A program made the translations under genes and the position numbers. A stretch of 41,908 nucleotides of DNA from IMG/VR virus record IMGVR_UViG_3300024265_000023, positions 1 to 41,908 of that record. One strand, given 5' to 3'. The stretch comes from a virus. Each line of letters opens with the position of its first letter. Positions within the stretch are counted from its first letter, which is position 1. Shown here in pieces: positions 1,863-41,908 of this stretch. The notes beneath the pieces are model-generated. The model saw only the letters and a list, made by a program, of their open reading frames with translations. It was not told where the DNA came from and ran no database searches.

Positions 1863-1928
1863 ATTACCCTAAGTTCCTGTTTTTATTCAATCCGACTGTC
1901 CACATGATTATTCATAATGAATCCATAT

Positions 1929-2041
1929 AATGGCCCGGTTGAGGTGCGGGCTGTATTTGCCAGCTCCAACCGGATTGTTCTGCTGCGCTGTGCAATGTTT
2001 CACTCAACCGGGCCATTCATGCTGGAGCGCAGCGACAGCAT
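1929..2041 (-). ncRNA. GC-rich structured repeat element, copy A (113 nt), candidate cis-regulatory or processing RNA, or ncRNA
   Basis: Identical base for base to 2579-2691. A 15-bp perfect long-range helix (AATGGCCCGGTTGAG / CTCAACCGGGCCATT) forms in the minus sense. Intergenic; ends 66 nt before the methyltransferase ATG. The strand is assumed from the surrounding genes. Confidence 0.5.
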
Positions 2042-2088
2042 AACGAATTCACTCGCGTAGCGTAGCGAAGACGATGTGCAATGATTTA

Positions 2089-2232
2089 TTATGTGTTTAA
2101 TTCAGCAAGTCTTACTATTGCTGATTCCTTAGTATTCCATCTTTCATAAAACATATGGAAGAATAGAAACTTTTGATAAATCATGTAATACCATTCTCCG
2201 CCCATAATTTCATATCTTATATAATATTTCAT
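2089..2232 (-). CDS. Small hypothetical protein (47 aa)
   Basis: Hand-found ORF. ATG at 2232-2230 follows GAGG. Sequence MKYYIRYEIMGGEWYYMIYQKFLFFHMFYERWNTKESAIVRLAELNT. Confidence 0.35.
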   Translation of the reverse strand: MKYYIRYEIMGGEWYYMIYQKFLFFHMFYERWNTKESAIVRLAELNT

Positions 2233-2328
2233 TTTACCTCACATAATTATTAAATTCACCATTGCGCTTTTCATACCGCAACCGCCTTGTCTATGGCATC
2301 CCTGATAATGACGTAAATCAGTCATGGG

Positions 2329-2568
2329 TTAAAAGCAGTTATTACATCGCCAAGCGTTATGCCAATCTTTCGGGTCATATTCTTTGCTACAGGCAGAACA
2401 CCTTAACCCATTGATCTGCATTGCAGTATTGGACGGCCATTTATAAGAATAAACGCCTGGATTGCGTACAAAAGTTCTAAGTGTTCCGCATTTTTTACAC
2501 CAGTCGTTATCAGCAAATGGTAATATTCCAATCCATTCATGTTTACATTTACGTTCAATTTTTTTCAT
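2329..2568 (-). CDS. Cys-rich zinc-ribbon-like protein (79 aa)
   Basis: Start moved to MKKIERKCKHEW (ATG 2568) because GGAG lies 6 nt upstream and the longer version would read through the GC-rich repeat. Motifs CKKC and CSAC...CNNC. Confidence 0.7.
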   Translation of the reverse strand: MKKIERKCKHEWIGILPFADNDWCKKCGTLRTFVRNPGVYSYKWPSNTAMQINGLRCSACSKEYDPKDWHNAWRCNNCF

Positions 2569-2578
2569 AGTCCGCTCC

Positions 2579-2691
2579 AATGGCCCGGTTGAGGTGCGGG
2601 CTGTATTTGCCAGCTCCAACCGGATTGTTCTGCTGCGCTGTGCAATGTTTCACTCAACCGGGCCATTCATGCTGGAGCGCAGCGACAGCAT
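2579..2691 (-). ncRNA. GC-rich structured repeat element, copy B (113 nt)
   Basis: Identical to 1929-2041, offset exactly 650 bp. Its 3' end (minus sense) abuts the GGAG RBS of the gene at 2568. Confidence 0.5.
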
Positions 2692-2987: not shown

Positions 2988-3362
2988 TTATTTTTCTTTT
3001 AAATAATCTTCAATTAATCCCATTGTTACGGCAGATGGTTCACGACTGTGTTTTTCTAAATGATGATGCAGTATATAGATCATTGTTTTTTTAGGATCAA
3101 TTGAGCATGAATATTCCGGAAGATTTTCAAAAACAACATCTAATGAATCTATCTTGAATTCATCATTACAATACTTAAATAATCTGGCCATAATAAATTT
3201 TTTAAAATCTTCCTTTAAAATATTTTTAAAGAATTTAGAGGAATATGTTACACACATGAAATTATCTTGATCTGATTTGCCAAAATTGCAATAAGGCTGA
3301 TCTTCTAAAAAATTGCAGTAATCAGCATAATTATTATTTTTTTGTATTGATTCATCGTCCAT
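2988..3362 (-). CDS. Hypothetical protein (124 aa)
   Basis: ORF track. Start moved to ATG 3362 (MDDESIQ), which has GGAG 7 nt upstream. Confidence 0.6.
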   Translation of the reverse strand: MDDESIQKNNNYADYCNFLEDQPYCNFGKSDQDNFMCVTYSSKFFKNILKEDFKKFIMARLFKYCNDEFKIDSLDVVFENLPEYSCSIDPKKTMIYILHHHLEKHSREPSAVTMGLIEDYLKEK

Positions 3363-4114: not shown

Positions 4115-4811
4115 CTTTTGACCCTGCTTTGTCCTCATTCATCCATGGGATATCTTCAATTGGTGTACCAATATAAACATTATCTTTAAAATGATCAGCG
4201 CCATCTATTTTATTTCGAACTTTATTTTTTGATTTAAACCAAACACTTTGCATTTTTTGCTTCCAATTTGAAACTTGTTTTCCTGTTGAATCGTGCCAGT
4301 CGGCTACATCATAATAATTAAATGCTTTTACTGCTATTTCAGTTTTATAAGAATTTTCATGAAAGTATAAAATTACATCTTCTTTTTTAGGAGGAATGAA
4401 AACTTTTTTTGCTTTGTTTTTTTTAATACCCTTTCCCTTAACTTTACTTGGTTTGGGTGTAGTCTGTGGTGTAGTCTGTGGTGTAGTCTGTGGTGTAGTC
4501 TGTGGTGTAGTATCTAACCACCCAATAAATAACAAGCTGTATTCATTGGGTTTTATTCTATTACCAGATTTAACTTTTATTACCTTTTTTTTTGATAATT
4601 TTTTGATATTCTCAATAATTGTTTTACGGGCCAATCCCGTGCAGCAAGAAAGGGTTGTTAATCCTGGGAAGCATCTTTTTGTTTTTCTGTTATAAAATCT
4701 CATAAAAGCTATCAATAATAATTTTTCGGAACTTGATAAATAATCAAGATCAAAAATAAGATCTATTAATTGATAGATAGGGAATATTTCATTCCCATTC
4801 TTATCAATCAT
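4107..4811 (-). CDS. Replication initiation/organiser protein with an N-terminal winged-HTH, a (TTPQ)5 linker and a C-terminal DnaD-like region
   Basis: The N-terminus LSSSEKLLLIAFMRFYNRKTKRCFPGLTTLSCCTGLARKTIIENIKKL is typical of phage replication HTH proteins. The gene lies directly upstream of the DnaC-like loader. Confidence 0.65.
   Translation of the reverse strand: MIDKNGNEIFPIYQLIDLIFDLDYLSSSEKLLLIAFMRFYNRKTKRCFPGLTTLSCCTGLARKTIIENIKKLSKKKVIKVKSGNRIKPNEYSLLFIGWLDTTPQTTPQTTPQTTPQTTPKPSKVKGKGIKKNKAKKVFIPPKKEDVILYFHENSYKTEIAVKAFNYYDVADWHDSTGKQVSNWKQKMQSVWFKSKNKVRNKIDGADHFKDNVYIGTPIEDIPWMNEDKAGSKDD
4456..4515. repeat. 12-bp direct repeat ggtgtagtctgt, four perfect units plus one degenerate unit
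   Basis: Read directly. Encodes TTPQ repeats on the minus strand and is flanked by A/T runs. Confidence 0.9.
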
Positions 4812-5653: not shown

Positions 5654-6187
5654 ATGAATCGATTTTCAATAATAGGCGAGATCATAGACGTTTCAGAACT
5701 CAGGTATGCCGGCCCAAAGAAAGCACCGGTTATAACAGCAAGGTTTAAAACCGGTTCCTCCATATTAAAAGTAACCTATTGGGGCAAGAAAGCTGAAAAT
5801 CTTGAATCAAGATATTCAACGCCTGGGATGTGCGTTTCAGTTGTCGGGTGGTTAGATATCAATACGTGGGAATATAACGATACTACATATGCAGAACTCA
5901 AAGGAACGGCTGACAAATCATATCCAATAGAAATGAATATTGAATTGATGTCACAGGTTGAAATAATAGGATCGATTGCCAAGAATTATGGTGCTGGCAA
6001 TTATTTGGTTAAATCAACCAGTGAGACAAAAGCTAAAAAATTCATCTGTCAATATATCCCTTTCCATTGTGATTATAATTTTGATCCTGGTCAGATCGTG
6101 CATGTAATGGGATCACTCAGGGTTGATAGGTGTCAATCTAATATAGCCAGGCAAACAGTTGAGGCTGCCCGGGTGATACAATTTTAA
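5654..6187 (+). CDS. SSB-like ssDNA-binding protein with two OB-fold-like halves and no acidic C-terminal tail
   Basis: MNRFSIIGEIIDVSELRYAG...VTYWGKKAENLESRYSTPGMCVSVVGWLDINTWE follows the canonical SSB N-terminal pattern. Confidence 0.55.
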   Translation: MNRFSIIGEIIDVSELRYAGPKKAPVITARFKTGSSILKVTYWGKKAENLESRYSTPGMCVSVVGWLDINTWEYNDTTYAELKGTADKSYPIEMNIELMSQVEIIGSIAKNYGAGNYLVKSTSETKAKKFICQYIPFHCDYNFDPGQIVHVMGSLRVDRCQSNIARQTVEAARVIQF

Positions 6188-6201: not shown

Positions 6202-6585
6202 ATGAATACCACAAGAAGAAATTTTTTAAAAATATCTGGTGTATTAGCAATATTACCTGCACTTAGTAAAATAGACATAATATCAGAATTTTCTCATAAG
6301 ATTAAATATATCAAACCACAATCAAGCCCTTTTAAAAACATAAATGTAAGGTTTCTTGGTAGACGTAAAGTTTTCAATCATTCATGTGTAGATGAATCAA
6401 ATCAATATATAGCAGATGTATATAATCTCAGACGATCCGTTAAAGGTGAAATGATTGAATGTTATGCATTTTTGGATGCTGAATTGGTTGACCTTGTACC
6501 CGACAAAAAAAAGTTTATTAAATATGAGTTAGTTTCTTACGCTGAATCTATAAATATTGCAGTTAAAAATAGATTCGGGATTTAA
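6202..6585 (+). CDS. Small exported protein with a twin-arginine (Tat) signal
   Basis: N-terminus MNTTRRNFLKISGVLAILPALS. Confidence 0.65.
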   Translation: MNTTRRNFLKISGVLAILPALSKIDIISEFSHKIKYIKPQSSPFKNINVRFLGRRKVFNHSCVDESNQYIADVYNLRRSVKGEMIECYAFLDAELVDLVPDKKKFIKYELVSYAESINIAVKNRFGI

Positions 6586-6595
6586 TGGGGGAAAT

Positions 6596-6862
6596 ATGAT
6601 AGCAAAATTTCATAAATGGACCAAGTTTCCAATAAATGTTGGTGAACCCCTTTGTTTTAAATTTGATATTAATGGCCTTACAATTATCAGCAGACCTAAA
6701 AAAAACGAAGATCACAATTGTTTTGCAGCTGAGTTTATTAAATCAGACACCGTTCAATTATTAAAAGTACATAGTCCTATTGGTATTTATTTGGCTCATA
6801 ATTATATTGATCTGGACACACCATACGTCTGTTGTGCAAGTTGTGGGGCCAAATTAAAATAG
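6596..6862 (+). CDS. Hypothetical protein (88 aa)
   Basis: ORF track. Start moved to ATG 6596 behind GGGGGA. C-terminal CCASC motif. Confidence 0.55.
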   Translation: MIAKFHKWTKFPINVGEPLCFKFDINGLTIISRPKKNEDHNCFAAEFIKSDTVQLLKVHSPIGIYLAHNYIDLDTPYVCCASCGAKLK

Positions 6863-7104
6863 TTACATTACACTTAATAATGTATCTGTTTCTGGTTCAC
6901 TTATCAAAGAATATCCGTAAAATGAAAAATAAACGATTCTGGTCATGGGCAAAAGTAACGCATTCCTTGAAAAGATTTGATCCAGGCGCTGCAAAATACC
7001 GACATAAATATGACATGCTTTTTGGATACGGTAAATTTATACGGGTCCGGCGGTACAAGGGACCTGGGGGAGAGATCAGGAGAACGGTTGAAATTGAAAT
7101 TTAA
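6832..7104 (+). CDS. Basic hypothetical protein; start uncertain (ATG 6880 or 6922 also possible)
   Basis: ORF track only. No convincing RBS at any candidate start. Confidence 0.35.
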   Translation: MCKLWGQIKIVTLHLIMYLFLVHLSKNIRKMKNKRFWSWAKVTHSLKRFDPGAAKYRHKYDMLFGYGKFIRVRRYKGPGGEIRRTVEIEI

Positions 7105-7293: not shown

Positions 7294-7440
7294 ATGAAAA
7301 AAATAAAAAAAGAAAAGTTTGTGCCTGAAAAATACATTATCAGATGCCCTGAATGCTGTGAAAAAAATAGTTTTTATAAGGACATACCCGGAAAATTTGA
7401 ATGCTGGGCCTGTGATACTGAGTTTGAAGTGGAGGAATAG
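7294..7440 (+). CDS. Zinc-ribbon mini-protein (48 aa)
   Basis: Hand-found ORF. GGGAGA RBS. Motifs CPECC and CWAC. Confidence 0.6.
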   Translation: MKKIKKEKFVPEKYIIRCPECCEKNSFYKDIPGKFECWACDTEFEVEE

Positions 7441-7617: not shown

Positions 7618-8402
7618 GTACAAAAATTCAATGGTGTGATGAAACCATCAATCCAATAGTCGGGTGTACAAAGATAAGTGAAGGTTGTAAAAACTGTTAT
7701 GCTGAAAAAATGGCATGGCGATTGAAAAATATTGGTATTGAAAAATATCAAGAAGTTGTAAATAAAAATGGATGGACCGGAGAAATTGGAATTGATATTG
7801 ATGCCTTTGATAAACTTCCAAAATATAAATCCAAAAAGGTATTCGTTTGTTCTATGGGTGACATTTTTCATAAAAGGGTTACAGAAAGACAAATCAATCA
7901 AGTAATAGCGATGATGGTCCACCCCATGGGAGGCCTGAGCCACCACACATATATGTTATTGACAAAGCGGCTTGATAGGATACCAGAGTCTTCTCGTGAA
8001 AGATTTGCAGAGTGGAAAAATATTTGGCTCGGTGTAACCGTTGAAAATCAGAAAGCAGATGAACGTATTGAACAATTGCTAAAGGTTCCGGCTTCAATCC
8101 GTTTCCTTTCTATTGAGCCTATGATTGGGCCTATATCTCTTCGCTGGTTATCCGCCTGGCCAAAAGAAAAATATTCAGCTATGAAACCAGGATTCGATGG
8201 AACAAATCATCTTGACGGATTGCGGGAACTTGATTGGGTTATTTGTGGACCAGAAACCGGCCAGGGTAAAAGACCTTTTGAATATGATTGGGCAAGAGTT
8301 TTAAGAGATCAATGCAAAGAGGCCAGCGTCCCATTTTTTTTCAAAAAGCATGACGACCCTGAAACCCCATACGATTTAAGAATAATGGAGTTTCCAAAAT
8401 GA
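7614..8402 (+). CDS. Phage Gp37/Gp68 family protein (DUF5131)
   Basis: N-terminus [37 protein letters not shown] matches the three-Cys signature of this family. The size also fits. Confidence 0.8.
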   Translation: [262 protein letters not shown]

Positions 8403-8791
8403 AAACCCTTTATCTGCCCATTAAAAAAAAATGGTTTGACATGATCAAATCCGGTGATAAGACACAAGAATACCGTGAAATAAAAGATTTTTGGATGAGG
8501 CGGTTAATCTCTCTTAAAGATGATATGGAATACAGCGCCTGGGATGAATTCATCACTGATCTGAATCATCCATATAACAGACATTCCGGACCCGATGAAT
8601 GTTTAAATTATTTCGAGGCAAGATTCAAAGAATTTGATTCTGTTGAATTCAGGAATGGCTATGACAAAAAAGTTCCTTCATTAAAAAAAGAGTTAAGATA
8701 TATCGCTGTTGGTACTGGTAATAAAAGATGGGGTGCTGTATCCGGTAAGTTTTATTTTATTTTAGAATTGGGCAAAATAATGGTGTCATGA
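8399..8791 (+). CDS. ASCH/PUA-like domain protein
   Basis: LYLPIKKKWFDMIKSGDKTQEYREIKDFWMRRL resembles the ASCH N-terminal pattern. ATGA overlap with the upstream gene. Confidence 0.5.
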   Translation: MKTLYLPIKKKWFDMIKSGDKTQEYREIKDFWMRRLISLKDDMEYSAWDEFITDLNHPYNRHSGPDECLNYFEARFKEFDSVEFRNGYDKKVPSLKKELRYIAVGTGNKRWGAVSGKFYFILELGKIMVS

Positions 8792-8807
8792 TGGAAGATA
8801 ATAACAT

Positions 8808-12795: not shown

Positions 12796-13944
12796 TTATA
12801 AAAAATTATTGTCAACAAAAATCATATCATAGGCGCCTATCACCCCTACAGTTGCACTAACTTCATCACACACAATTATAATATCTGACTTTTCAGGTAT
12901 TGGTACTGGAACACCATAGCCATAAATCCAGAATTGACCCCCGTTTGCTATCACTTCCACTTGACCATTGACAGCATATATTCCCGTTGCACCATTATTC
13001 AATCTTGCCCGCCATGTGAATTGTGCCGAGGCGGGGGTAGCAGGATTACCACCGGAGCTTATCCCTACGTAGCCCTTTAGGAAAAGACCTGTCTTTCCAC
13101 TGGGAATAGTGAAATTAGCTTGTTGTGTGCGGCCGTCCCCAGCTGTAATGAATATACCGGCGTTTGTGGTGGCATCAACTTCAACGGAAATATTACCCTC
13201 ATTCATAGCTGATGCACCGGCATGCAATACTGTACCACGATATAATCTTACGAATCCTGTCGATATCGCAACATCAGTTTGTCCATTGAGGATAATTGTC
13301 TCAGTTGCAACGGTCCAGGTTAAACCTGAAGCCGTCAAGCCTTCAATATTTATAACACCAGCACCGGTATCCCCGCTTGATGCAATTCTATAAGTATCGC
13401 CTGATTCATTCGGCTTAGATGTTAAAGATTTATGGGCTACAGTGGACCCGGTTGTCATTGTGGTATGGGTAAGCTCAGTTTCAGAAGTTACTACTTTCAC
13501 GGTTCCAAATTCTCCATTGGTGTCATTTATGACAATATCACCAACCGCCACCCCGTCCGATACAAATGTGGCACCGGAGTCAACCAATGTTGTTAAACTT
13601 CCACCTGTTGCCGTCCCAGAACTTACGAGGGACCCGACATCATCAACATCAGTTGAAACGGCTTCAACAGTCTGGTTTGTTGTAAAATAAAAATCATATA
13701 TCCCGCCGCCGCCCCAAACATCTTCCGGATCGGTTGCAACTTCGACAACAGGATTATGACCATATTTATTTATATGTGAATACCCGGGGATTTGACCAAG
13801 GGCAACCCTCAATAAAAAATCTGCCTGGAAGGAATTGGCGGTTGACCGCAGCCCACCGCTATTAATTGCTATGCCTTCAGCAAACGAAAAGCTGACAGAC
13901 ATAAATAAAATAAAAAAGGATAATAAAAGTTTTTTAATAATCAT
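12796..13944 (-). CDS. Tail-module protein (382 aa) with an N-terminal signal peptide
   Basis: MIIKKLLLSFFILFMSVSFSFA signal. G/T/S-rich beta-type composition. ATGA overlap with the upstream giant gene. Confidence 0.5.
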   Translation of the reverse strand: MIIKKLLLSFFILFMSVSFSFAEGIAINSGGLRSTANSFQADFLLRVALGQIPGYSHINKYGHNPVVEVATDPEDVWGGGGIYDFYFTTNQTVEAVSTDVDDVGSLVSSGTATGGSLTTLVDSGATFVSDGVAVGDIVINDTNGEFGTVKVVTSETELTHTTMTTGSTVAHKSLTSKPNESGDTYRIASSGDTGAGVINIEGLTASGLTWTVATETIILNGQTDVAISTGFVRLYRGTVLHAGASAMNEGNISVEVDATTNAGIFITAGDGRTQQANFTIPSGKTGLFLKGYVGISSGGNPATPASAQFTWRARLNNGATGIYAVNGQVEVIANGGQFWIYGYGVPVPIPEKSDIIIVCDEVSATVGVIGAYDMIFVDNNFL

Positions 13945-16900
13945 CGTTTTTTCCTTATTTTAGGATTTCTTACCAGGACATTTATTGCCGTTCCGTCACC
14001 GTTTTCATATTGTTCAATACCTTGATCAATTTCTCTAATTATTTTAGGGAATGGTGTTCTGACCCCATAAGCCAACATTTCCAGCAATGCAAGTAAAGAC
14101 CTTTCAAGTTTTTCATCATCATCAAGATCTTCTATCCACTTTATTGTATCATTTATTAATTTAATGGCCAGTTTAGAACCGATCAATACAGGAGAATCAA
14201 AGGGATCCCTCTGGAAACCCTTAAATATTCCGGCCACGGCCCCGGCAAACTCCCTGATCAGGAATATCCCTATAAACTGATATGTGATGACGTCCAATAC
14301 AACATCTTCCGGATCTGGTTCTTCTCCCCACATTAAAGCAAACATCAGATTCATCATAATTGGAGGCGCTACCTGCTCCATGGTGACTATTGAAGTATAT
14401 CTTGCAAAACTTATTGATCCATTTTTCCATGCATTATAATGATATCTCTGCCTGGCTCCCATCTTTGCCGTGAAAGTTGAAAATAAAGTAAAGAATCGAT
14501 GCCAACCTTTTCGGCTTCTCTGTAGATGGTTCAAGTCTATTTCCTGTGAAGAAGGCTGGCTATTCCTGATCTGTGAGTCTGCATACCTAACAGCCTTGGC
14601 CATGTCACCATTATTTATCTTCATTCCCTTCTGATATGCACCCTGCCAGGATGGAAAAACCGTAGCAAAGTCCATTGCCCGGATGAACATAAACATTGCA
14701 TTTTGAACATCATCCCATGTCTGACCTCTAAAACTTTTTTTCCCGGGCTTGATCAAACCAATATTCCTTCTCAGATCCCGGTCAACATTATCAGATCGTG
14801 TTCTCATAAATGGACTTGCTGCCCTCATTCCATTATATGCGTCCCATGGGGAAACAAGAACCTTACCAATTCCACGCATATACCAGAAAACACCATTTGC
14901 TGAATTGCCATCACCAACATCATTAAGGAAACCAAAAATTGAAAATGGTTGTTTTAATGCTACTGACCTGCTTAATCCAAGAGTGTATGATGTTGCTCTC
15001 TGGGCTTCCCTTAAAGCTATGGTATCCATATGTTCAAGTCTGATGGCGTTCGGCCTTGCAATCTCAGCGAGTGCCGGCCGCATCATTTCATAAAGCGCCT
15101 GGCCTTCTGCTTTTTCCACCGCATCCTGATATTGTTCACTTCTGATTATTTTATTTACATCATTAACAGCTTCCGAATGGGTGATATATCTGATTGAAGT
15201 ATTTACATGGGTAAAAAGAACATTCAAATCAAGTTTCACAGGAAGAGAAACCTTACCTGTTGCCCTGGACTGCAGCATACCATTCTTAGGATTTGCCGGC
15301 TGAAACATTGCCTCTGATGAATTCATGAAGTCTTCTTTTTCTGTCCATTCTCCAATCTGAGTACTCAACGACCTATCAAAAAGAATTGGATAATACCCAC
15401 CTTTTAATTTGAGACCGGTTGGAGTTATAAACTCTTCAGCTTCAACCTTTTTTTGATGAAAATCATTTATCCTGAAAAAAGCAGCGTCCAGCTGTGGCCA
15501 CAACGAATTAACAATATCCCAAATCTCTTGAACATTCTTCCAGTCTTGTTCATTTAAAATACTTGTCAGGGCATCAACATCATTATTAGTTATCAAATAT
15601 CCACCGGTTATTCTTTGCAGGTTCTGACTGTTGCCCCTATTTAATGCAATGGCCAAAATTCTTTCAAATGTCCAGAATCTTTCTTTCCCCCTTTTCATGT
15701 TTTCAGGGACCGGAACACCGGTATCAACAATTCTTTTTGGAAAATCGTTTACTCTTTTTGAAAAATATTCAGCAATAGGATTTAATTTATCAGAGAATTC
15801 CTGAACAAGATCAATAAATTCATTATCTGCATCAAATAGCCTGTTGTTTATAGCCTCTTCGTTCGGCCCGATCTTGCCCTTTATGCTCACAAAACCGTCA
15901 AGCCTACGGGAAATAAATGGTAAAGACTCCTGGGTTGCAAAAAATCTCCTGGTTGCCGTTGTTAATTTTTCAAGGATAGAATCTTCAGGAAAAATTTTCT
16001 TTGTTCTTTTTCTTGCTCTCATCGGCTGAACGAGCTCAGTGACTTTTTCCTGAACTAAAGTTTTACCATCTGACAATCGATCCTTTTTAACTCTGCGGCC
16101 TCTTTTTTCAAAATATCTAATAAGGTCATCAAGCTCAGTGAATTGATCCACTGTTAAATTTTTATAATTTGTTTCAAAAACATCAAGCATAAACATATCT
16201 GAATATGTTGGGACCATCTCCCACATTTCAATATCAACACCTTCAGTAAGTTTTGCAAAAAATTCGCCAATGGCCGGACGATCTTGATCAAGTACAAGAT
16301 TTCTCTTGGTTAATCCAAACCTTTGCATAACCCTGACGGCCTGCTGTTTATATTCATTCTTAATGGTCTTTGACTTAATTATCCTGGAAGATCTTTTTAT
16401 AAGTTGCTCAACTAATTTCCTCTGCTTGATTGATAATCCGGATAACTCATAATTTAATCTGACCTTTTCGTTTGCTTCTGATGCTTCACCAAACTTGCCC
16501 TGCTGTGCTTTCTTCCGTTCAATTCTTGAATATTTTTTTAATGATGCAAGGTAACTATTAGTTCTAATGGCTTTTTTGATCTGATAATCAGCAAATAATT
16601 TTTTAGCAAAAATCTTAAATGTTTTCGCAGGTGCCACATCAGTAACACCCCTGTTTTCATACTTTGCCATGATGGAAAGGAATTCACCATATTCCTTTGT
16701 GCCGATCAAATAATCATTCGGCTGAAACTTCTCATCATTCTCCATCTGCTGTCTTTGAACATAATTATCAATGAATGCCTGCATTGGAACAACACTTGCC
16801 AGATCTTCAACCATGGCATCAACGGTATCATAACCAAAATCAAGTGCAGCTTCAGGAAGGTTTTGACCGTCTTTTCTTACAACTCTGGGCACTGTCTTTG

Positions 16901-19900
16901 GAATTTTATCTATGTTTTCTTTACCATAAATATAATCCATCTGCTGTTTGTTCAGGCCTTTGCCTTTGGACATCGCCAATAATTTTTGATATTCAGGCCG
17001 TTTTAATGCTATTTCCCGGCCTTTCTCTTTCCAGGCTTTACGCTTAGACCGATTATCTTTATTTCTATCCTTCACAAGTTGCTGTTCAGCCTTGAATATC
17101 GCATCTTTAAGAAGACGCTTCATGAATTCCCGATCTTCAGGAACAATCCCCAGGGAATCCATGGTTGCCTTTGAAGGCATTTCCATCTGATTTTCCTGAA
17201 CAGCAAGATCTGTTTCAACCTCAGCAACAAGCATCCTGTCAAATACTTGTCTGATTTCGTCATTCAATTCAACATCAAGGGCATTTATGGATTTGTAGAC
17301 AGAAAGAAGCCATTTCCTAAATCGTTCAAACGAATTTTCAAGATCTTTAGATGGGGCCTTTCCTTCAAATAGGTAAGCTTCAAATCCCCGGGCAAACTTT
17401 TCCTGCTGTTCTGTTGTAAAAGATTCCTGACCCTTTTCAAATCCGAGCCATTCTTTAATGGTATTATTATCATTGATGAATTGTTCCGATGCGGTTCCGA
17501 TATCAACCACGGATTGCATTTCATTAAGGAATAGGTGCCCTGTCTCATGGAGAAGGGTTGAAAGATCTGCTTTGCCTTTGAATATGGTGATTATGTTTTC
17601 TTCAGGGGTGATGGTGATGGCGCCTTTTACTTTTTTTTCTTTTTCTTGCCGGAAGATATTTGGATCAGTCGGATCAAATGTGCCTATATTTTCTGAAGCT
17701 GATTTAATTTGTTCCGGATTAAAAGCAACATAAGTAATCTGATCATCATCAACTAACTTTAATCCATCAAAACCTCTACCTATAAGCTCATCTATGCCAA
17801 ACTTATCATATTCTTTCCAACCAGCTGGATTTTGTATAGAAATGAAAGCGTCAACAATAACACCCTTACCCTGTGCGCCAACTTCTCCCCCTTCTATTTT
17901 TGACTTGTCGTTTGTAAACCAAAAAGTTCCACCAATACTCCTTTCTGGATCAAACGCTTCGAATCTCTCTGCCGTGCCATGAAAGACTACCTCTGGATTA
18001 CCTTCATCGTCAACGACCTTGGAATCTTTAAAGAAGGCTTTGAATTCTTCTGTCTCTGGTTGTATTGGTTCAGCTTGGAATAAATCAAATGGTTCAACTA
18101 TTTTTCCTAATTCACTTTCAGAAAGATCAGTCTCAAGAACCTCAATTTCCTGATCCTCATTTGCCTCAAATGTTCCTTCAAGACCACGAAATGTCACAAC
18201 ACCATCATCAACACTTTCAATCTCATAGACATCCCAACCACTTGCGCCCTTACCACTAAGAATAGTAACCTTGCTGCCCTGTTCAATATCAATGGCTTTT
18301 ATATTAACATAGTTTCCTGCAGGCGGTTCTTCAGCCTCAAACTCTTCTTCCTCTTGAATTCTTGCCTCTATTTCAGGAATAACGCCGGTTACACCCCTTT
18401 TCAAAGCGTCTGGCTGAGTTCTTAACACTTCAAGAAGATCTTCATCCTGCTGAAGCCATCCTTCTCTCTTTAACTGCTCTTCAGCCAAGTCAATAGGGAA
18501 ACCGCCTTTTTTAAAAAGAAACTTTGCACCAACCGATAAGCTTTTCACCTCCCCCTTAAAATTTAAAGGAGCAATTCCACCAAATTGTTTTATTCTACCT
18601 CTTAATGTTGTAACGCCTGGACGTGGTTTTTTTCTTGGAGCCGGGATAAACTCAGAACCTTTTTCAAAGGCTTCCAGGGCTTGACCTCTTAATCTTATTC
18701 GTGAAACAGTATCAACCCTATTCTGTCCCTCAAGCGCCAACCTTTCAGAAAATCTTTCAATCAATGTCCCGAACTCTTCAACCTGTTCAGGAATAACACC
18801 TGCAGCCGCCGCCTCATCTTTTATCCTTGTGAGCTCAGTCTGAAACCCCGTTTCATCCTCAATGGCATCACTGAACCTATCCGCGATATCAGCAAGACTG
18901 CCTTCAATATCAATTTCGTCAACTTGCCTTTGACTCATTGCCCCGGGCGCCTGCTTTAAATCATCAATGATAAAATTTCTTTCCTCTGGTGATAACCTGG
19001 CATGGACCTTACTCATCGTAACTGGTATGTCATGGCCTGAACTAATTTCTTCAATAGCTTCTTCAGGATCCACCCCAAGTTTTTCCATGATCTCCGTCAC
19101 GACTTCCGGGTTTTCCTGAAAAAGAACCTGAGCCCCATCAGAAGAAATAAAACCGGTTTCGCCAAGGCCAAGGATATTTAAAAACTTTTCAGAGTTCTCC
19201 GGGGATCGCTCTTTTGTTTTTGAATTATCCATGGCAGTGCCAACCCTGGAATGAAGGTCTTTAAAGTCTGCAGCATTCTTCTTATTGGTTTCAAAGTCTT
19301 CAATTTCTTTTTTTTGGGAAACAAAAGCAGTGCCCCCGCCAAGGATAAATGCCCCGGGGATAACATCAATGTTCCGTGCCCCTTCAATAACCTGATCAAT
19401 TATTTCCTGGGGAGTGTCCTCTTCTGCCAGGGCTTTTATCAAGGCTTGTGTCGGTTCTTCTGCCCATTCAGTGGCAGCCTCAACCCCACCTTTTACAAAG
19501 GACCTGAATATTCTTGATTTTAAATTTTTGACAGGGGTTTTATCAAGGATAGCATCAAGACCAATCCTGTTCAGGTATGCAGACACACCACCAAAGGAAA
19601 TGGCAGCATTCAAGGCAGTTACCCGACTAACCTCTTTTTCTTCCATCATTTCATTAAAAAGAGCAGTTCCTTCCTGAAGACCACCAACCAAACCGGCAAC
19701 CGCTGTTGATCCACCTGTTGCATAAGCTGTTGCAAATATCGGAATCATAGAAGAAAGAGCATCCCCTGTATTCTGGATTAACCATTCAGGGTTTGCAAGA
19801 AGCTGAGGGTTATCAATGAGTCTGAGACCTTTGATATCTTCGGACAATCCAAGATTAAAGCCTAAGAACTCATCATCACCCTGCAGGACTTGCCCCTGTG

Positions 19901-20603
19901 CTTTCGCTTCTCTCAGTGACCAATCTTGAAGCCATTCAAACAGGCCTCCTTTCTCAAGACCTGTTAAATTCTCAATAGCCTGGGCGCCTTCAGCAAGAAC
20001 ACCAGCGCTGAATGCCGTGGCATTGGTACCGGCCCTGCCAAGTGTGTAGGCTGCCCGGGGGAGAAATCTTGCAATAGCCTTACCGGCATTAACTATTGTT
20101 TCATCAAAAGTGGGGGATCTCGTTATCCCTTCATCTGATATTGAAAGAACATCCTGAACAACCGGACCATCTTCAATCTTTTGGATCCCTGAATAATATT
20201 CATTCTCAACATTTGATAATCCTTCGTGATCATCCCGGCTGATTGAAGTGTTGCCGGGACTGCCAAGGAATTCAGTTGTTGCAGGATTATTAATACTCAA
20301 ATCATTGAAATCAGGTTCTTCAGCTCTTTTTTTGTAAGACTGTTCATTTTCCCTGACAACCTGCCTGGGGATGCCAAGCTGATTTGATACTTTTTGACCT
20401 TCAGCCTCTTTATCAGGATTTAAATTTGTGGTTGCGTTATAACTTGCCCGGGCATTGTCTTTGTTGATATCAAAGCCGATTGTTTTGGAAAAAGATTCAA
20501 AGGGAATATCTTGGTACTCTTTTTTCCATAATCCCTCTGCAAGTTCCCTGTCTGTAAGATCTGAATATTCTGGATACCGTTCTCTTATTTGGGTAATATT
20601 CAT
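13941..20603 (-). CDS. Giant polyvalent (probably ejected or internal virion) protein, 2220 aa, with an ART-like domain and an HExxH metallopeptidase domain
   Basis: Uninterrupted ORF. VVFHGTAERFEAF...GGTFWFTND...YVAFNPEQIKSA (about 17679-18032). LLHETGHLFLNEM (HExxH at 17535-17549) followed by EKFARGFEAYLFEGKAPS. Hydrophobic C-terminal segments. Confidence 0.6.
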   Translation of the reverse strand: MNITQIRERYPEYSDLTDRELAEGLWKKEYQDIPFESFSKTIGFDINKDNARASYNATTNLNPDKEAEGQKVSNQLGIPRQVVRENEQSYKKRAEEPDFNDLSINNPATTEFLGSPGNTSISRDDHEGLSNVENEYYSGIQKIEDGPVVQDVLSISDEGITRSPTFDETIVNAGKAIARFLPRAAYTLGRAGTNATAFSAGVLAEGAQAIENLTGLEKGGLFEWLQDWSLREAKAQGQVLQGDDEFLGFNLGLSEDIKGLRLIDNPQLLANPEWLIQNTGDALSSMIPIFATAYATGGSTAVAGLVGGLQEGTALFNEMMEEKEVSRVTALNAAISFGGVSAYLNRIGLDAILDKTPVKNLKSRIFRSFVKGGVEAATEWAEEPTQALIKALAEEDTPQEIIDQVIEGARNIDVIPGAFILGGGTAFVSQKKEIEDFETNKKNAADFKDLHSRVGTAMDNSKTKERSPENSEKFLNILGLGETGFISSDGAQVLFQENPEVVTEIMEKLGVDPEEAIEEISSGHDIPVTMSKVHARLSPEERNFIIDDLKQAPGAMSQRQVDEIDIEGSLADIADRFSDAIEDETGFQTELTRIKDEAAAAGVIPEQVEEFGTLIERFSERLALEGQNRVDTVSRIRLRGQALEAFEKGSEFIPAPRKKPRPGVTTLRGRIKQFGGIAPLNFKGEVKSLSVGAKFLFKKGGFPIDLAEEQLKREGWLQQDEDLLEVLRTQPDALKRGVTGVIPEIEARIQEEEEFEAEEPPAGNYVNIKAIDIEQGSKVTILSGKGASGWDVYEIESVDDGVVTFRGLEGTFEANEDQEIEVLETDLSESELGKIVEPFDLFQAEPIQPETEEFKAFFKDSKVVDDEGNPEVVFHGTAERFEAFDPERSIGGTFWFTNDKSKIEGGEVGAQGKGVIVDAFISIQNPAGWKEYDKFGIDELIGRGFDGLKLVDDDQITYVAFNPEQIKSASENIGTFDPTDPNIFRQEKEKKVKGAITITPEENIITIFKGKADLSTLLHETGHLFLNEMQSVVDIGTASEQFINDNNTIKEWLGFEKGQESFTTEQQEKFARGFEAYLFEGKAPSKDLENSFERFRKWLLSVYKSINALDVELNDEIRQVFDRMLVAEVETDLAVQENQMEMPSKATMDSLGIVPEDREFMKRLLKDAIFKAEQQLVKDRNKDNRSKRKAWKEKGREIALKRPEYQKLLAMSKGKGLNKQQMDYIYGKENIDKIPKTVPRVVRKDGQNLPEAALDFGYDTVDAMVEDLASVVPMQAFIDNYVQRQQMENDEKFQPNDYLIGTKEYGEFLSIMAKYENRGVTDVAPAKTFKIFAKKLFADYQIKKAIRTNSYLASLKKYSRIERKKAQQGKFGEASEANEKVRLNYELSGLSIKQRKLVEQLIKRSSRIIKSKTIKNEYKQQAVRVMQRFGLTKRNLVLDQDRPAIGEFFAKLTEGVDIEMWEMVPTYSDMFMLDVFETNYKNLTVDQFTELDDLIRYFEKRGRRVKKDRLSDGKTLVQEKVTELVQPMRARKRTKKIFPEDSILEKLTTATRRFFATQESLPFISRRLDGFVSIKGKIGPNEEAINNRLFDADNEFIDLVQEFSDKLNPIAEYFSKRVNDFPKRIVDTGVPVPENMKRGKERFWTFERILAIALNRGNSQNLQRITGGYLITNNDVDALTSILNEQDWKNVQEIWDIVNSLWPQLDAAFFRINDFHQKKVEAEEFITPTGLKLKGGYYPILFDRSLSTQIGEWTEKEDFMNSSEAMFQPANPKNGMLQSRATGKVSLPVKLDLNVLFTHVNTSIRYITHSEAVNDVNKIIRSEQYQDAVEKAEGQALYEMMRPALAEIARPNAIRLEHMDTIALREAQRATSYTLGLSRSVALKQPFSIFGFLNDVGDGNSANGVFWYMRGIGKVLVSPWDAYNGMRAASPFMRTRSDNVDRDLRRNIGLIKPGKKSFRGQTWDDVQNAMFMFIRAMDFATVFPSWQGAYQKGMKINNGDMAKAVRYADSQIRNSQPSSQEIDLNHLQRSRKGWHRFFTLFSTFTAKMGARQRYHYNAWKNGSISFARYTSIVTMEQVAPPIMMNLMFALMWGEEPDPEDVVLDVITYQFIGIFLIREFAGAVAGIFKGFQRDPFDSPVLIGSKLAIKLINDTIKWIEDLDDDEKLERSLLALLEMLAYGVRTPFPKIIREIDQGIEQYENGDGTAINVLVRNPKIRKKR

Positions 20604-35251: not shown

Positions 35252-35608
35252 TTATACCTCCATGTAAGAAATTTTCATTATAACCGGTTCATTGAATCCA
35301 AACAATTTAACAAATCTATCCCAGATAGAACCGCTTTCAAAATTGTTCATGGTTGAAATTTTCTTAATATTCCTTGATGCAAGCATTCTCTTTATTAATT
35401 CCCAATCCCTTAAAGCCGCCTTCATTGTTGATGGTCTAAAATTATTATTGAACTTAAAATGAACTATTGCGGTATCAATTGCAATGGCATAAGCAAGATA
35501 ACCATAAACACATTTATTATGAACAACCCTGAAAAAAACATACTTGTCAGGCTCACAAAGGTTTTCAAACCCTGGATTATTTTTAATTTTAATTATCAAA
35601 GATATCAT
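35252..35608 (-). CDS. Hypothetical protein (118 aa)
   Basis: ORF track. Overlaps the TerL stop by 20 nt. Confidence 0.5.
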   Translation of the reverse strand: MISLIIKIKNNPGFENLCEPDKYVFFRVVHNKCVYGYLAYAIAIDTAIVHFKFNNNFRPSTMKAALRDWELIKRMLASRNIKKISTMNNFESGSIWDRFVKLFGFNEPVIMKISYMEV

Positions 35609-37142
35609 ACTCCGTTATCGCAAAGGCCTGCTGACTAGGTTGCCTTGCACCTTCATTAAATTGATCATAAAGCGTATGGGATTGAGGTTGTGCCAGGATA
35701 TGCCGACTCTTTTTCACTACAGGATGAGCAAATGTTAAACCTAAAGACATTAAGCAATCAGGAGAGGCAAGCCCCCTGCCCTTCATATCCTCTGCCCTTT
35801 CAAGTTGCATTTGCTCTGCTGGATTAAAGAAATACTCCGGGCCTGTTATATCATCCCTTAATTCATTGTCATCAGGGATAGCCCCACCATTGGTAAGCCA
35901 ATTTTTTACACCGCCAACCATTTCAATACGTTTATTAAAATAAGTCTGTTTATCATCTGATGATCCACCGAACCAGATACCGGTTACATAATCTTCGTAT
36001 CCCCACCCAATAAGAAGATCATAAATAGCAGCACCTGTATTGCCCATATCAAGGAAAACTTGATCAGGCAACCAATCTTTAATTATTTGTGCGATCAATC
36101 CTGCAACAGTCAAAGAGTCAAGTTTTGCAAGCTTAGTTAATCCATAACTTGCAAGACCCTGCCTTTTAATAAAGACGGTCTTATCATCACCGAACCTGGC
36201 AATATCAACCCCAAGTATTTTAGGCATTGAAATATATTGAGATGGATGGATAACCTTTCCCATTGCAGCCTCAACAATATCAGTACCAATAAACTGCTTT
36301 GTGCCGGCTGAAGGTTCTTGACCAAGAATACGGACTTTAACAAAATCAGAATCAATGCCATAGAATTCAATTTGATCTTTGATAAGTTCTTTATCTGTTC
36401 TCTTTGATGTACGGGCATCAATTTCGTATGTGATCCAGAACTTACGCCTTTTCTTGAAACATTCTGAAAAGCGGCCGGTTGCCTGGGTAGGATTACCAAA
36501 GACAATCCATAATTTCAAGCCATTGGGCTCAGTCATGGCACCCTCGGTAACTTCCCATATCCCATCAAAGATCTGACTTGCCTCATCAAACTTCATCATC
36601 AAATATTTTTCATGGGTGCCGGCAAAGGCCTGGGTATTATGCTTTGACCATGGGATTGCCTGAGTATACCAAGTATTGGGCCTGCCTTTAAAAATTAACT
36701 TTGTTGCCGTCCAGGTGAACCAATGGGCATTGATAAGAAGTTCTTTCCACTTTGCATTCTCACGCCATGTTTTTGTTCTGAGTTGGGTATCAGTATTTGC
36801 AGTCGTGATACATTGCGGATCAGGATGGCAGGATGCAAACCAATGATCAAGCCATGCCATTAAAGCTGATTTGCCGATCCCGTGGCCGGACCTGACTGCA
36901 AGCCATATCCTGCCGTTCTTTATCTCAATCCGGACACCATTGTTCATAACCCATCCATGGGTCAGGGCGTGCCCGATATCTTTTAGAACCTTAGTTTGCC
37001 ATTCATCCGGACCGGTTTCATTTTCAAGGGGAGTCCCGGGCTCACCCCAGGGATAAGCGAACATGACAAAGCCATAAGGATCACGGACAAATCCGCATAT
37101 GTCCTTTTGTAGTTGGGCTTCTATGTCAATGGCTGCTGTCAT
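35589..37142 (-). CDS. terL: Terminase large subunit
   Basis: Walker A-like SGHGIGKS and Walker B MMKFDEAS. Start placed at ATG 37142 (AAGGAG RBS) because a terminator hairpin occupies the upstream extension. Confidence 0.85.
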   Translation of the reverse strand: MTAAIDIEAQLQKDICGFVRDPYGFVMFAYPWGEPGTPLENETGPDEWQTKVLKDIGHALTHGWVMNNGVRIEIKNGRIWLAVRSGHGIGKSALMAWLDHWFASCHPDPQCITTANTDTQLRTKTWRENAKWKELLINAHWFTWTATKLIFKGRPNTWYTQAIPWSKHNTQAFAGTHEKYLMMKFDEASQIFDGIWEVTEGAMTEPNGLKLWIVFGNPTQATGRFSECFKKRRKFWITYEIDARTSKRTDKELIKDQIEFYGIDSDFVKVRILGQEPSAGTKQFIGTDIVEAAMGKVIHPSQYISMPKILGVDIARFGDDKTVFIKRQGLASYGLTKLAKLDSLTVAGLIAQIIKDWLPDQVFLDMGNTGAAIYDLLIGWGYEDYVTGIWFGGSSDDKQTYFNKRIEMVGGVKNWLTNGGAIPDDNELRDDITGPEYFFNPAEQMQLERAEDMKGRGLASPDCLMSLGLTFAHPVVKKSRHILAQPQSHTLYDQFNEGARQPSQQAFAITEYDIFDN

Positions 37143-37160
37143 AATCTCCTTGTCGGGCAT

Positions 37161-37202
37161 AAAAAAAGAGGCATTGTGATGATGTGGCACCACATTGCCT
37201 CT
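37161..37202 (-). terminator. Rho-independent terminator directly upstream of terL
   Basis: Minus sense: AGAGGCAATGTG, a 12-nt loop, CACAATGCCTCT (one mismatch), then TTTTTT. Confidence 0.6.
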
Positions 37203-39967: not shown

Positions 39968-40064
39968 TGCAAAATCCTTTCTATATTTATGGTTTCATTA
40001 TTTGTAATCATGACACCGTTAATATTTAATTCACTTGTGCGTAGCCATCAAGTGCAATGGCTTA

Positions 40065-40199: not shown

Positions 40200-40221
40200 T
40201 TTAAATTCTCCTTGTAGAAAA

Positions 40222-40299
40222 ATAATGGCCCGGTTGAGGTGCGGGCTGTATTTGCCAGCTCCAACCGGATTGTTCTGCTGCGCTGTGCAATGTTTCACT
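40222..40299 (-). ncRNA. GC-rich structured repeat element, copy C (truncated, 76-78 nt)
   Basis: Identical to 1927-2004. Lacks the distal arm of the 15-bp helix. Ends 11 nt before the GGAGA RBS of the gene at 40199. Confidence 0.5.
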
Positions 40300-40450
40300 G
40301 ATAACTCTAATAATTCCGGGTGGCAGTCTGGGGATCTATGTATACTCGAACAGCCAACCCAAAACCAATATAACCACCACCCAAACAATCCATTCCATAA
40401 AACCCCCTTATGTCATTATCGTTAGTAATGAATCTATTTTATTGGCGGTT

Positions 40451-40984: not shown

Positions 40985-41182
40985 ATTAATGCTCCTTTTT
41001 TTGACCGGACCCCTTGTCTTTAAAGGGACCCGCCGTTTTTTTCCACTCAAAAAACTGATTTTTCTGTCAGAAATTTGACATACTATATTTTTCGTTTAAA
41101 AAGTGTCTCACCCAATATTTTCCCTTGATACACTTTTTCTTTAAAAATGGTGTCATGATATATGATAATGTATTCATTTTAA

Positions 41183-41908
41183 TTATTTTATTGCAACAAA
41201 ATCTCCATTCTTCAGTTTATAAAGGGTATCCTCTTTCAAAACTTCACCATCAATTATGGCCGATTTTACACAAAAAGGAATATATCTTTCTTTGGTATCA
41301 TCATATTTCCATTCAGCAAGAGTTATCCAATTTCCTTTTTTAGCTTTTATTTTTGAATCAAAGCCAATCGATGCACAAACACTATCAAGGCCTTCAACTT
41401 CGATATGAGCAGAATCACCAGATGAACCGATCTTAGCAGAATAACCAGATGAACCGATCTTAGCAGAATCACCAGATGAACCGATCTGAGCATAATCACC
41501 AGATGAACCGATCTGAGCATAATAACCAGATGAACCGATCTGAGCAGAATCACCAGATGAACCGATCTGAGCAGAATCACCAGATGAACCGATCTTAGCA
41601 GAATCACCAGATGAACCGATCTTAGCATAATCACCAGATGAACCGATCTTAGCAGAATCACCAGATGAACCGATCTTAGCATAATCACCAGATGAACCGA
41701 TCTTAGCAGAATCACCAGATGAACCGATCTGAGCAGAATCACCAGATGAACCGATCTTAGCATAATAACCAGATGAACCGATCTTAGCAGAATCACCAGA
41801 TGAACCGATCTGAGCAGAATCACCAGATGAACCGATCTTAGCATAATAACCAGATGAACCGATCTTAGCAGAATCACCAGATGAACCGATCTTAGCAGAA
41901 TCACCAGA
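41183..41908 (-). CDS. 3' part of the split repeat-protein gene: 9-aa repeats plus a 76-aa C-terminal domain
   Basis: Hand translation in the SAQIGSSGD frame continues as ...SAHIEVEGLDSVCASIGFDSKIKAKKGNWITLAEWKYDDTKERYIPFCVKSAIIDGEVLKEDTLYKLKNGDFVAIK, ending at TAA (41185-41183). Confidence 0.75.
   Translation of the reverse strand, partial: SGDSAKIGSSGDSAKIGSSGYYAKIGSSGDSAQIGSSGDSAKIGSSGYYAKIGSSGDSAQIGSSGDSAKIGSSGDYAKIGSSGDSAKIGSSGDYAKIGSSGDSAKIGSSGDSAQIGSSGDSAQIGSSGYYAQIGSSGDYAQIGSSGDSAKIGSSGYSAKIGSSGDSAHIEVEGLDSVCASIGFDSKIKAKKGNWITLAEWKYDDTKERYIPFCVKSAIIDGEVLKEDTLYKLKNGDFVAIK
41414..41908. repeat. 18 units plus 9 bp of the 27-bp tandem repeat
   Basis: Direct reading. The unit is atNaccagatgaaccgatctNagcaNa. 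Confidence 0.95.

Follow-up and report, generated by a model that had tools for sequence, protein, structure and literature searches.

What is a structured sequence of 113 nucleotides (nt), rich in guanine and cytosine (GC), doing in two identical copies just upstream of two minus-strand genes of an AT-rich phage genome? The sequence lies in IMG/VR record IMGVR_UViG_3300024265_000023, whose entire 41,908 nt we call the window. A preliminary description of this DNA had offered several roles for the element, among them an attenuator- or riboswitch-like arrangement, an RNase III-type site and a recombination hotspot. With a confidence just short of even, we favour the view that the element is a lineage-specific, recently duplicated intergenic repeat, which lies at the boundaries of accessory-gene cassettes and serves as a patch of homology for recombination. 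On this view it is probably both a by-product and a substrate of modular recombination, and not a conserved regulatory RNA.

Three copies of the repeat in one clonal strain

Direct comparison bore out the duplication: copies A (1929-2041) and B (2579-2691) are identical base for base across all 113 nt, and with a GC content of 57.5% they exceed the window (38.5%) by 19 points. A third copy, C (40222-40299), was absent from the preliminary description; its 78 nt are 100% identical to 1927-2004. Read in the sense of the surrounding genes, copy C is truncated at its 5′ side, keeping the 3′ two-thirds and the same 3′ end, stopping 2 nt into one helix arm, and having no 24-nt tail, no small 5′ hairpin and no 5′ arm for the long helix. 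The copies consequently share a precise 3′ end and vary in 5′ extent. All three occupy intergenic gaps along some 3.8 kb and share one orientation, gene sense; the next start codon follows after 10 nt (copy B), 66 nt (copy A) and 22 nt (copy C). The first two distances, and the GGAG ribosome-binding site (RBS) at the shorter of them, had been given correctly before.

The long-range helix described earlier is likewise present. It is formed by a perfect 15-bp inverted repeat with arms AATGGCCCGGTTGAG and CTCAACCGGGCCATT and 59 nt between them (1929-1943/2003-2017 in copy A, 2579-2593/2653-2667 in copy B). No local perfect inverted repeat in the window is longer, and stems in 30 block-shuffled versions reached at most 13 bp. 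On one side the repeat unit continues for 24 nt past the arm, and the flanks of the copies carry no target-site duplication. Each full copy also contains the motif CCGGTTG(G)AG three times, twice as direct repeats and once inverted, with no other exact occurrence in the window.

The repeats are not an assembly artefact, because the same arrangement is found in independent assemblies (L059 and L077, and also L060) and a Logan contig (L061) ends part-way through the repeat. Exact-protein look-ups located the same phage in four samples: JGI 3300028610 (the window), JGI 3300009788, ENA ERZ27251120 and SRR5210996. The element copies are identical in all of them, and the four represent one clonal strain, whose agreement confirms the repeats but is uninformative about their evolution. 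Over 7.8 kb the window and L059 show no substitutions outside a 27-nt tandem array (four within it), and their only other differences are in the copy number of the 27-nt repeat and of a 12-nt tandem repeat. Since the copies are exactly identical and their GC content stands so far above that of the genome, recent gain and spread of the element appear likely.

Ends of copies A and C lie at mosaic junctions

Phage L080, the nearest relative that has diverged, carries a TerL of the same 90% cluster, late genes with 74-89% nucleotide identity and a syntenic early region. Neither sensitive blastn nor a covariance model made from the element found a copy in L080, and the syntenic gaps there are 41 and 60 nt long and AT-rich. 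The two phages differ in every gene that lies between the 64-amino-acid (aa) gene and the endolysin. Their C5 methyltransferases (1212-1862 in the window, 3124-3780 in L080) are non-orthologous, with 25% aa identity, and the spacers that precede their start codons show 91% identity over 54 nt. A motif before copy C has 82% identity to L080 over 51 nt, and the RBS spacer and ATG directly after copy C match, at 83% identity over 30 nt, the spacer before a different L080 gene. The methyltransferase swap reads as a clear gene replacement at a conserved linker, and conserved linkers between unrelated genes are, as judged from this comparison, the signature of cassette exchange at gene boundaries.

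In both cases that could be tested, copies A and C, the 3′ end of the element falls at the switch from window-specific to shared sequence. Copy A has GGGCC at its 3′ end, and homology with L080 sets in 13 nt past it; for copy C, the final 5 nt (ATTAT) already belong to the homologous stretch. What is conserved at the linkers of this phage pair is AT-rich motifs and RBS spacers, not the lineage-specific GC-rich element.

An AT-rich intergenic motif, ~ATTCATTAT-N6-8-AT(C/A)ATGACAC, stands before many genes, is common to both phages and has -10-like hexamers. It was found in the window in gene sense (2767-2797, 1184-1213, 8776-8802, 41143-41179 and 40412-40440) and in the opposite sense (39996-40026), and in L080 at 2315-2355, 3064-3123, 4191-4241, 4754-4799, 5917-6020, 6402-6440, 6720-6843 and 7832-7988. 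The word ATCATGACAC, with at most one mismatch, occurs 9 times against 3.2 expected. We regard the motif as a candidate phage promoter, operator or recombination linker.

A proposed patch of homology flanking an ORFan cassette

Copies A and B are direct repeats that bracket open reading frames (ORFs) with no homologue (79 aa) or with only a singleton cluster (47 aa). We suggest that the element acts as a portable patch of homology, through which a resident copy would recombine with a copy on incoming or circularised DNA. Such recombination may have inserted the 537-bp segment of orphan ORFs (ORFans), leaving the repeat-segment-repeat topology seen at 2691-1929, since a circle with one copy that integrates into a resident copy produces this topology. 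Recombination between A and B could delete the segment again as a 650-bp circle. Copy C would then be the outcome of a one-sided event, homologous on its 3′ side and illegitimate or microhomology-mediated on its 5′ side. Breaks and strand exchange may be promoted by the very stable hairpin or cruciform that this GC-rich 15-bp inverted repeat makes, and the same hairpin would also form in the polycistronic mRNA when the operon is transcribed, where a secondary effect on processing or stability is conceivable.

Among the roles proposed earlier, a recombination hotspot of the promoter-stem-loop kind therefore suits the context best, given that direct repeats bracket ORFans, that L080 lacks the element and that copy ends lie at mosaic junctions; scans for sigma-70-type sites and for stems followed by a U-tract found neither the promoter nor the terminator by which promoter-early stem-loops (PeSLs) are defined. 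Several points weigh against a recombination patch. There is one diverged relative only, and parsimony does not distinguish gain in this lineage from loss in L080. No single-copy variant, whether a deletion or a pre-insertion form, was found in the four samples of the one clonal strain. The element has only three copies, and the scans showed in it neither the promoter nor the terminator that turn PeSLs into self-contained cassettes. Its shared, precise 3′ end near an RBS and its uniform orientation are equally expected of a cis-acting RNA element, and recombination at the element is inferred from sequence.

If the recombination reading is true, the locus would be a small, clean example of repeat-bracketed ORFan cassettes outside T4-like phages, and the reading predicts a 650-bp circle as well as a deletion variant with a single copy. 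Taken with the AT-rich linkers, the locus would show a temperate podovirus-like phage swapping accessory genes without breaking its operon.

Table 1. Repeat copies and adjoining features (positions in the window)
Feature	Position	Strand	Remarks
Copy A	1929-2041	-	Gene sense: 5′ hairpin 2041-2019, then helix arms 2017-2003 and 1943-1929; 66 nt upstream of the C5-methyltransferase ATG (1862)
Copy B	2579-2691	-	Structure as in copy A; 10 nt (GGAGCGGACT) upstream of the ATG at 2568 of the 79-aa zinc-ribbon-like ORF
Copy C	40222-40299	-	ATG (40199) of a 44-aa membrane ORF follows after 22 nt; the endolysin comes next
Bracketed segment, 537 bp	2042-2578	-	Between direct repeats B and A; holds the 79-aa ORF, the 47-aa ORF and an RTTGCAC...GTGAAY hairpin (2047-2082)
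Spacer from copy A to methyltransferase ATG	1863-1928	-	Conserved intergenic linker; 54 nt at 91% identity to L080
RBS spacer ATTATTTTTCTACAAGGAGAATTTAAA after copy C	40200-40226	-	Overlaps the final 5 nt of copy C; ATTAT microhomology junction
79-aa ORF	2329-2568	-	RBS GGAG with 6-nt spacer; three CxxC pairs and CxH
47-aa ORF	2089-2232	-	Singleton cluster

Folding of the element and the case for a cis-acting RNA

Folding both strands had been proposed in the preliminary description. The fold is indeed stable, and it does not tell the strands apart: the predicted RNA structure reaches -48.7 kcal/mol in gene sense (z -3.5) and -52.9 kcal/mol when the opposite strand is folded (z -4.0), and the element folded as single-stranded DNA gives z -3.2. 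The signal is essentially that of the inverted repeat plus a 6-bp 5′ hairpin, and it separates neither the strands nor RNA from DNA. In copies A and B the helix comprises 15 bp plus 2 bp after a mismatch (15-17 bp), encloses a branched loop of 55-59 nt and persists in folds of the whole intergenic regions. Copy C, alone or in context, folds no better than shuffled sequence (z about -1.2). In the minimum-free-energy (MFE) structure of copy B, a CUCC just 5′ of the element pairs with the GGAG RBS just 3′ of it; this pairing with the Shine-Dalgarno (SD) sequence is seen in the MFE structure of copy B only.

The main rival to a recombination patch is a cis-acting RNA hairpin in a polycistronic early or late mRNA, acting as an RNase III-type site, a 3′ stabiliser or a translational insulator before the next RBS. 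We consider this possible but doubtful. The placement of all copies, intergenic, in gene sense and 10-66 nt before a start codon, is what such an element would show, as are the persistence of a stable helix in whole-intergenic folds and the CUCC-GGAG pairing of copy B; the helix, however, is lacking from copy C, which folds as shuffled sequences do, and the opposite strand folds better still, as would that of any inverted repeat. L080 moreover has the same operon layout without the element, Rfam yields no match, and a single clonal strain provides no covariation. Were the hairpin an RNA-processing or insulating module, it would be a new cis-element, the case for which rests on one strain. The RNase III site, translational operator and stand-alone noncoding RNA of the preliminary description gain no support from the sequence alone, which does not count against them either.

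The inner structures described earlier exist in the sequence. The GCTG-GCAAATA-CAGC hairpin is there, and so is the middle segment CCGGTTGGAG, which can pair with the 3′ arm over 8 bp including one G-U. The claimed 8-bp pairing is present as a complementarity between GCTGCGCT and AGCGCAGC; by a rough estimate about 0.1 such matches are expected by chance in 113 nt, and on its own it is not significant. A switch of the riboswitch or attenuator type, with CCGGTTGGAG as the competing segment, would draw on that alternative pairing and on the RBS of the 79-aa ORF, which abuts the 3′ arm. We judge it very improbable: the 15-bp helix prevails in the ensemble, an expression platform is missing (neither a U-tract terminator nor consistent SD sequestration), conservation does not extend beyond one strain, Rfam has no match and the three downstream genes are unrelated. 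The attenuator- or riboswitch-like arrangement of the preliminary description found no support, there being no terminator, no consistent SD sequestration across the copies and no homologues by which to judge conservation. A riboswitch or transcription attenuator class was rejected on the same grounds, with no homologue in the searched collections, no terminator and SD pairing in the MFE structure of copy B only.

Known RNA classes, expression signals and coding potential

The preliminary description had recognised no known transfer RNA (tRNA), ribozyme or riboswitch, and database comparison agrees. ARAGORN found no tRNA or transfer-messenger RNA (tmRNA) genes in the window, and the whole window gave no Rfam match at gathering thresholds; with the threshold relaxed to E<=10, region 1880-2100 gave only a chance microRNA match of 14.5 bits against a cutoff of 66 bits. 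A consensus scan of both strands of 1929-2041, 2579-2691 and 40222-40299 revealed no promoter-like site, the scan covering sigma-70-type sites only. The consensus scan found no intrinsic terminator, in the form of a stem followed by a U-tract, in any copy.

The element is noncoding in gene sense, as judged from its reading frames, because the gene-sense frames across it are interrupted or out of register with the downstream genes and no ORF across it was called by gene callers. Ten ORFs in or across the repeat regions were looked up among 15 billion predicted proteins, and none is on record. The sole fully open plus-strand frame has no genuine homologue in 1.84 billion representatives, its one match being a repetitive-protein artefact.

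Other known kinds of element were considered and set aside. In integron attC sites, an inverse core RYYYAAC stands at the 5′ side and a core GTTRRRY at the 3′ side of an imperfect palindrome; the arms of the element read GTTGAG...CTCAAC on both strands, the order opposite to attC. Two further candidates were considered: a mimic of clustered regularly interspaced short palindromic repeats (CRISPR), or Racr, was rejected because no repeat-like unit or array is present, and a retron because no reverse transcriptase was seen among the ORFs screened. A restriction-site decoy or methyltransferase target cluster was rejected because CCGG is over-represented genome-wide and the element is not special in this respect. 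Across the window, CCGG (171 observed, 56 expected), CCWGG (105 and 35) and GATC (222 and 145) are over-represented and CGCG is depleted (13 and 56), skews that may be linked to the phage C5 methyltransferase or to host restriction systems.

Searches for homologues and the case for a mobile element

When the region and the 113 nt were compared by BLASTN with GenBank phages and PLSDB, nothing appeared beyond one chance match of 37 nt. In IMG/VR, five exact-pattern scans with 15- to 24-mers tiling the element gave chance matches only, most of them to one unrelated gut-phage gene that has a 17-mer in common with it. A core-hairpin pattern matched five distinct loci in JGI metagenome contigs, the number expected by chance for a GC-rich pattern, and all but one of these (L074) lie in GC-rich coding sequence. 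An arm-gap-arm pattern in GTDB genomes met one Stenotrophomonas palindrome, consistent with chance, and covariance model R1, built from the element's sequence and structure, had no matches over all related loci. Because the pattern scans need exact words and the JGI metagenome collection did not return the window's own contig, the absence of homologues is not proof. Within these searches, the element and the ORFs it encloses are orphans.

The exceptional locus, L074, lies at 2202-2249 at the end of JGI contig Ga0315543_1034888, a bacterial-like contig of 44% GC that ends right after a 424-aa gene. Its end reads CCGGTTGGAG, then 23 nt with an inner CGGC-TAA-GCCG hairpin, then CTCAACCGGGCCGTT, with stems and layout as in the core hairpin of the element. 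The contig breaks exactly at the hairpin, and the overall number of matches is consistent with chance.

The searches bear directly on a second alternative, in which a small non-autonomous mobile palindromic element inserts into AT-rich spacers, in the manner of miniature inverted-repeat transposable elements (MITEs), repetitive extragenic palindromic (REP) sequences, Rickettsia palindromic elements or mitochondrial GC clusters. We think this unlikely. Perfect 15-bp inverted repeats of terminal type, a GC-rich composition foreign to the genome, exact copies confined to AT-rich intergenic spacers, and a precise common 3′ end with variable 5′ extent would all agree with it. The inverted repeats do not bound the copies, however: a further 24 nt of repeat unit follow one arm, and copy C ends within an arm. 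Target-site duplications are absent, none of the 19 window ORFs screened against Pfam had a transposase-like match, and exact-pattern scans and BLASTN of IMG/VR, GenBank phages, PLSDB, JGI metagenome contigs and GTDB gave only chance matches.

It is similarly unlikely, in our estimate, that the element is the first-seen member of an undescribed class. One such class would consist of selfish, GC-rich palindromic elements carried by phages, which move from spacer to spacer with their 3′ end fixed and their 5′ side truncated to varying degrees. Another would be a new kind of RNA hairpin module, acting in cis to insulate or process cistrons that a long operon has recently gained.

Other relatives of the phage were screened as well. 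The DnaC-like protein has no relatives in IMG/VR, and the phages with TerL homologues of 60-76% identity (L062-L067; 48-53% GC) contain no element. Methyltransferase homologues are widespread (the best others at no more than 80% identity) and were uninformative as a guide. In related phages, TerL homologues (P0003, at L062 10001-12559, and P0010) are interrupted by intein-like insertions with LAGLIDADG_3 and the Hint-domain family PF13403; the TerL of the window (35589-37193) is uninterrupted.

The genome around the element and the case for a protein-binding site

The same 27-nt tandem repeat is found at both ends of the window, at 1-198 and 41387-41908, which marks the window as a circular phage genome of about 41.4 kb assembled in wrap-around fashion. 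This repeat (ATCACCAGATGAACCGATCT[G/T]AGCA[G/T]A) lies within a minus-strand DUF7666 gene, whose product has 229 aa in L059, and its copy number varies between samples. The phage carries a tyrosine integrase, and a T7-type portal and GP7/Bbp16-type structural genes are seen in its relatives; the phage that hosts the element is temperate, circular, integrase-bearing and podovirus-like.

A divergent early control region near 4.8-5.2 kb marks the start of one long minus-strand gene array. It runs through a Cro-like helix-turn-helix protein, a replication initiator, a DnaC-like loader, a 124-aa ORF and a 64-aa membrane ORF to copy B, then through the 79-aa zinc-ribbon-like ORF and the 47-aa ORF to copy A, and continues with the C5 DNA methyltransferase, a 131-aa ORF, a repeat protein and an RNase H-like exonuclease to copy C, which is followed by the 44-aa membrane ORF, an M15 endolysin and the packaging and virion genes. 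The copies thus occupy the early ('nin-like') and pre-lysis region. The 79-aa ORF has no homologue among 5.8 billion proteins and was left uncalled by gene callers in all source assemblies. Elsewhere in the genome, a single ORF of 2220 aa (13941-20603, minus strand), between the tail and structural genes, takes up 16% of the total.

Four 12-nt tandem repeats (GGTGTAGTCTGT) at 4456-4515 lie inside the replication-initiator gene and encode TTPQ repeats. There are two fewer in L059, so the array is polymorphic in copy number, and the repeats are candidate origin iterons that we liken to those of the lambda O gene. A replication origin at the GC-rich element was rejected because these iterons are a better candidate. 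The same array is relevant to a further alternative, that the CCGGTTG(G)AG copies form a DNA-level protein-binding module such as an operator, an accessory site for a recombinase or for replication, or a single-strand hairpin signal. Three motifs per full copy that recur nowhere else exactly in the window, a structure symmetrical on both strands and replication genes just upstream are in keeping with such a module, and we nevertheless regard it as improbable: the arms, 59 nt apart, are too distant for one dimer, the iterons are the better origin candidate, no candidate binding protein was identified, and the element is absent from L080, which has homologous replication proteins.

A second intergenic hairpin family, RTTGCAC-N(10-26)-GTGAAY, occurs in both phages directly after the stop codons of small genes: at 2047-2082 and 40029-40058 on the minus strand of the window, and at 7062-7085 and 7345-7378 on the plus strand of L080. 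Its outermost pair covaries, being A:T in the window and G:C in L080. One such hairpin stands 5 nt upstream of copy A, and the element itself contains GTGAAAC-ATTGCAC, the reverse order of this family, exactly at the start of copy C.

Comparison with known systems

Several known systems share parts of this picture. The start-associated sequences (SAS) and extended SAS (ESAS) of Cluster K mycobacteriophages are repeated sequences immediately upstream of the RBS and start of several genes, partly with inverted repeats and with no assigned function, much like the element. SAS are 13 bp long, include the RBS, exceed 10 copies and are conserved across the cluster, whereas the element is 113 nt long, leaves out the RBS and is known in three copies from one strain.

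The RNase III sites of T7 (R0.3-R18.5) are hairpins of about 20 bp with an internal loop, conserved among T7-like phages and with demonstrated cleavage. The element resembles them in consisting of repeated related hairpins that are intergenic in polycistronic podovirus mRNAs and lie just upstream of the next cistron. It departs from them in its 15-17-bp helix with a branched loop of 55-59 nt, in the loss of the helix from one copy and in its lack of conservation; a site of the T7 type would have a double-stranded hairpin of some two helical turns in each copy. With MITEs, REP sequences, Rickettsia palindromic elements and mitochondrial GC clusters, as these are generally known, the element has in common that it is a small GC-rich palindromic repeat in the spacers of an AT-rich genome; it differs in that its copies are not bounded by inverted repeats, have no target duplication and were not found outside this phage.

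In the modular evolution of lambdoid phages, short boundary or linker sequences are the places where homologous exchange joins unrelated genes. Gene-boundary linkers are seen directly in the pair formed by the window phage and L080, with the difference that the linkers conserved here are AT-rich motifs and RBS spacers and the GC-rich element is lineage-specific.

The closest parallel is with PeSLs, which in T4-type phages shuffle ORFans and form mini-circles (PMC2839356). A PeSL is defined by a strong sigma-70-like early promoter (-35/-10, with an AT-rich upstream region) and a stem-loop that acts as a terminator or attenuator (PMC2839356), and PeSLs occur in tens of copies that are conserved across related T4-type phages (Arbiol et al. 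2010, PMC2839356; Comeau et al. 2014, PMC4122927). The element has no sigma-70-like promoter; it has the stable stem-loop, and the scan saw a U-tract follow a stem in none of the copies. It is present in three copies in one strain and absent from L080, its sole relative for this comparison, and its carrier is a 41-kb temperate podovirus-like phage, not a T4-like myovirus. Like a PeSL, it is a repeated intergenic G+C-rich stem-loop in a plastic part of the genome, copies A and B flanking ORFans and the 3′ ends of A and C lying at junctions; PeSL-bounded indels between close relatives may have a counterpart in these junctions, and the direct-repeat topology would permit excision of the cassette as a mini-circle. 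On our reading the element resembles a PeSL in its behaviour without being one, and its kind is that of repeated intergenic stem-loop linkers flanking phage ORFan cassettes.

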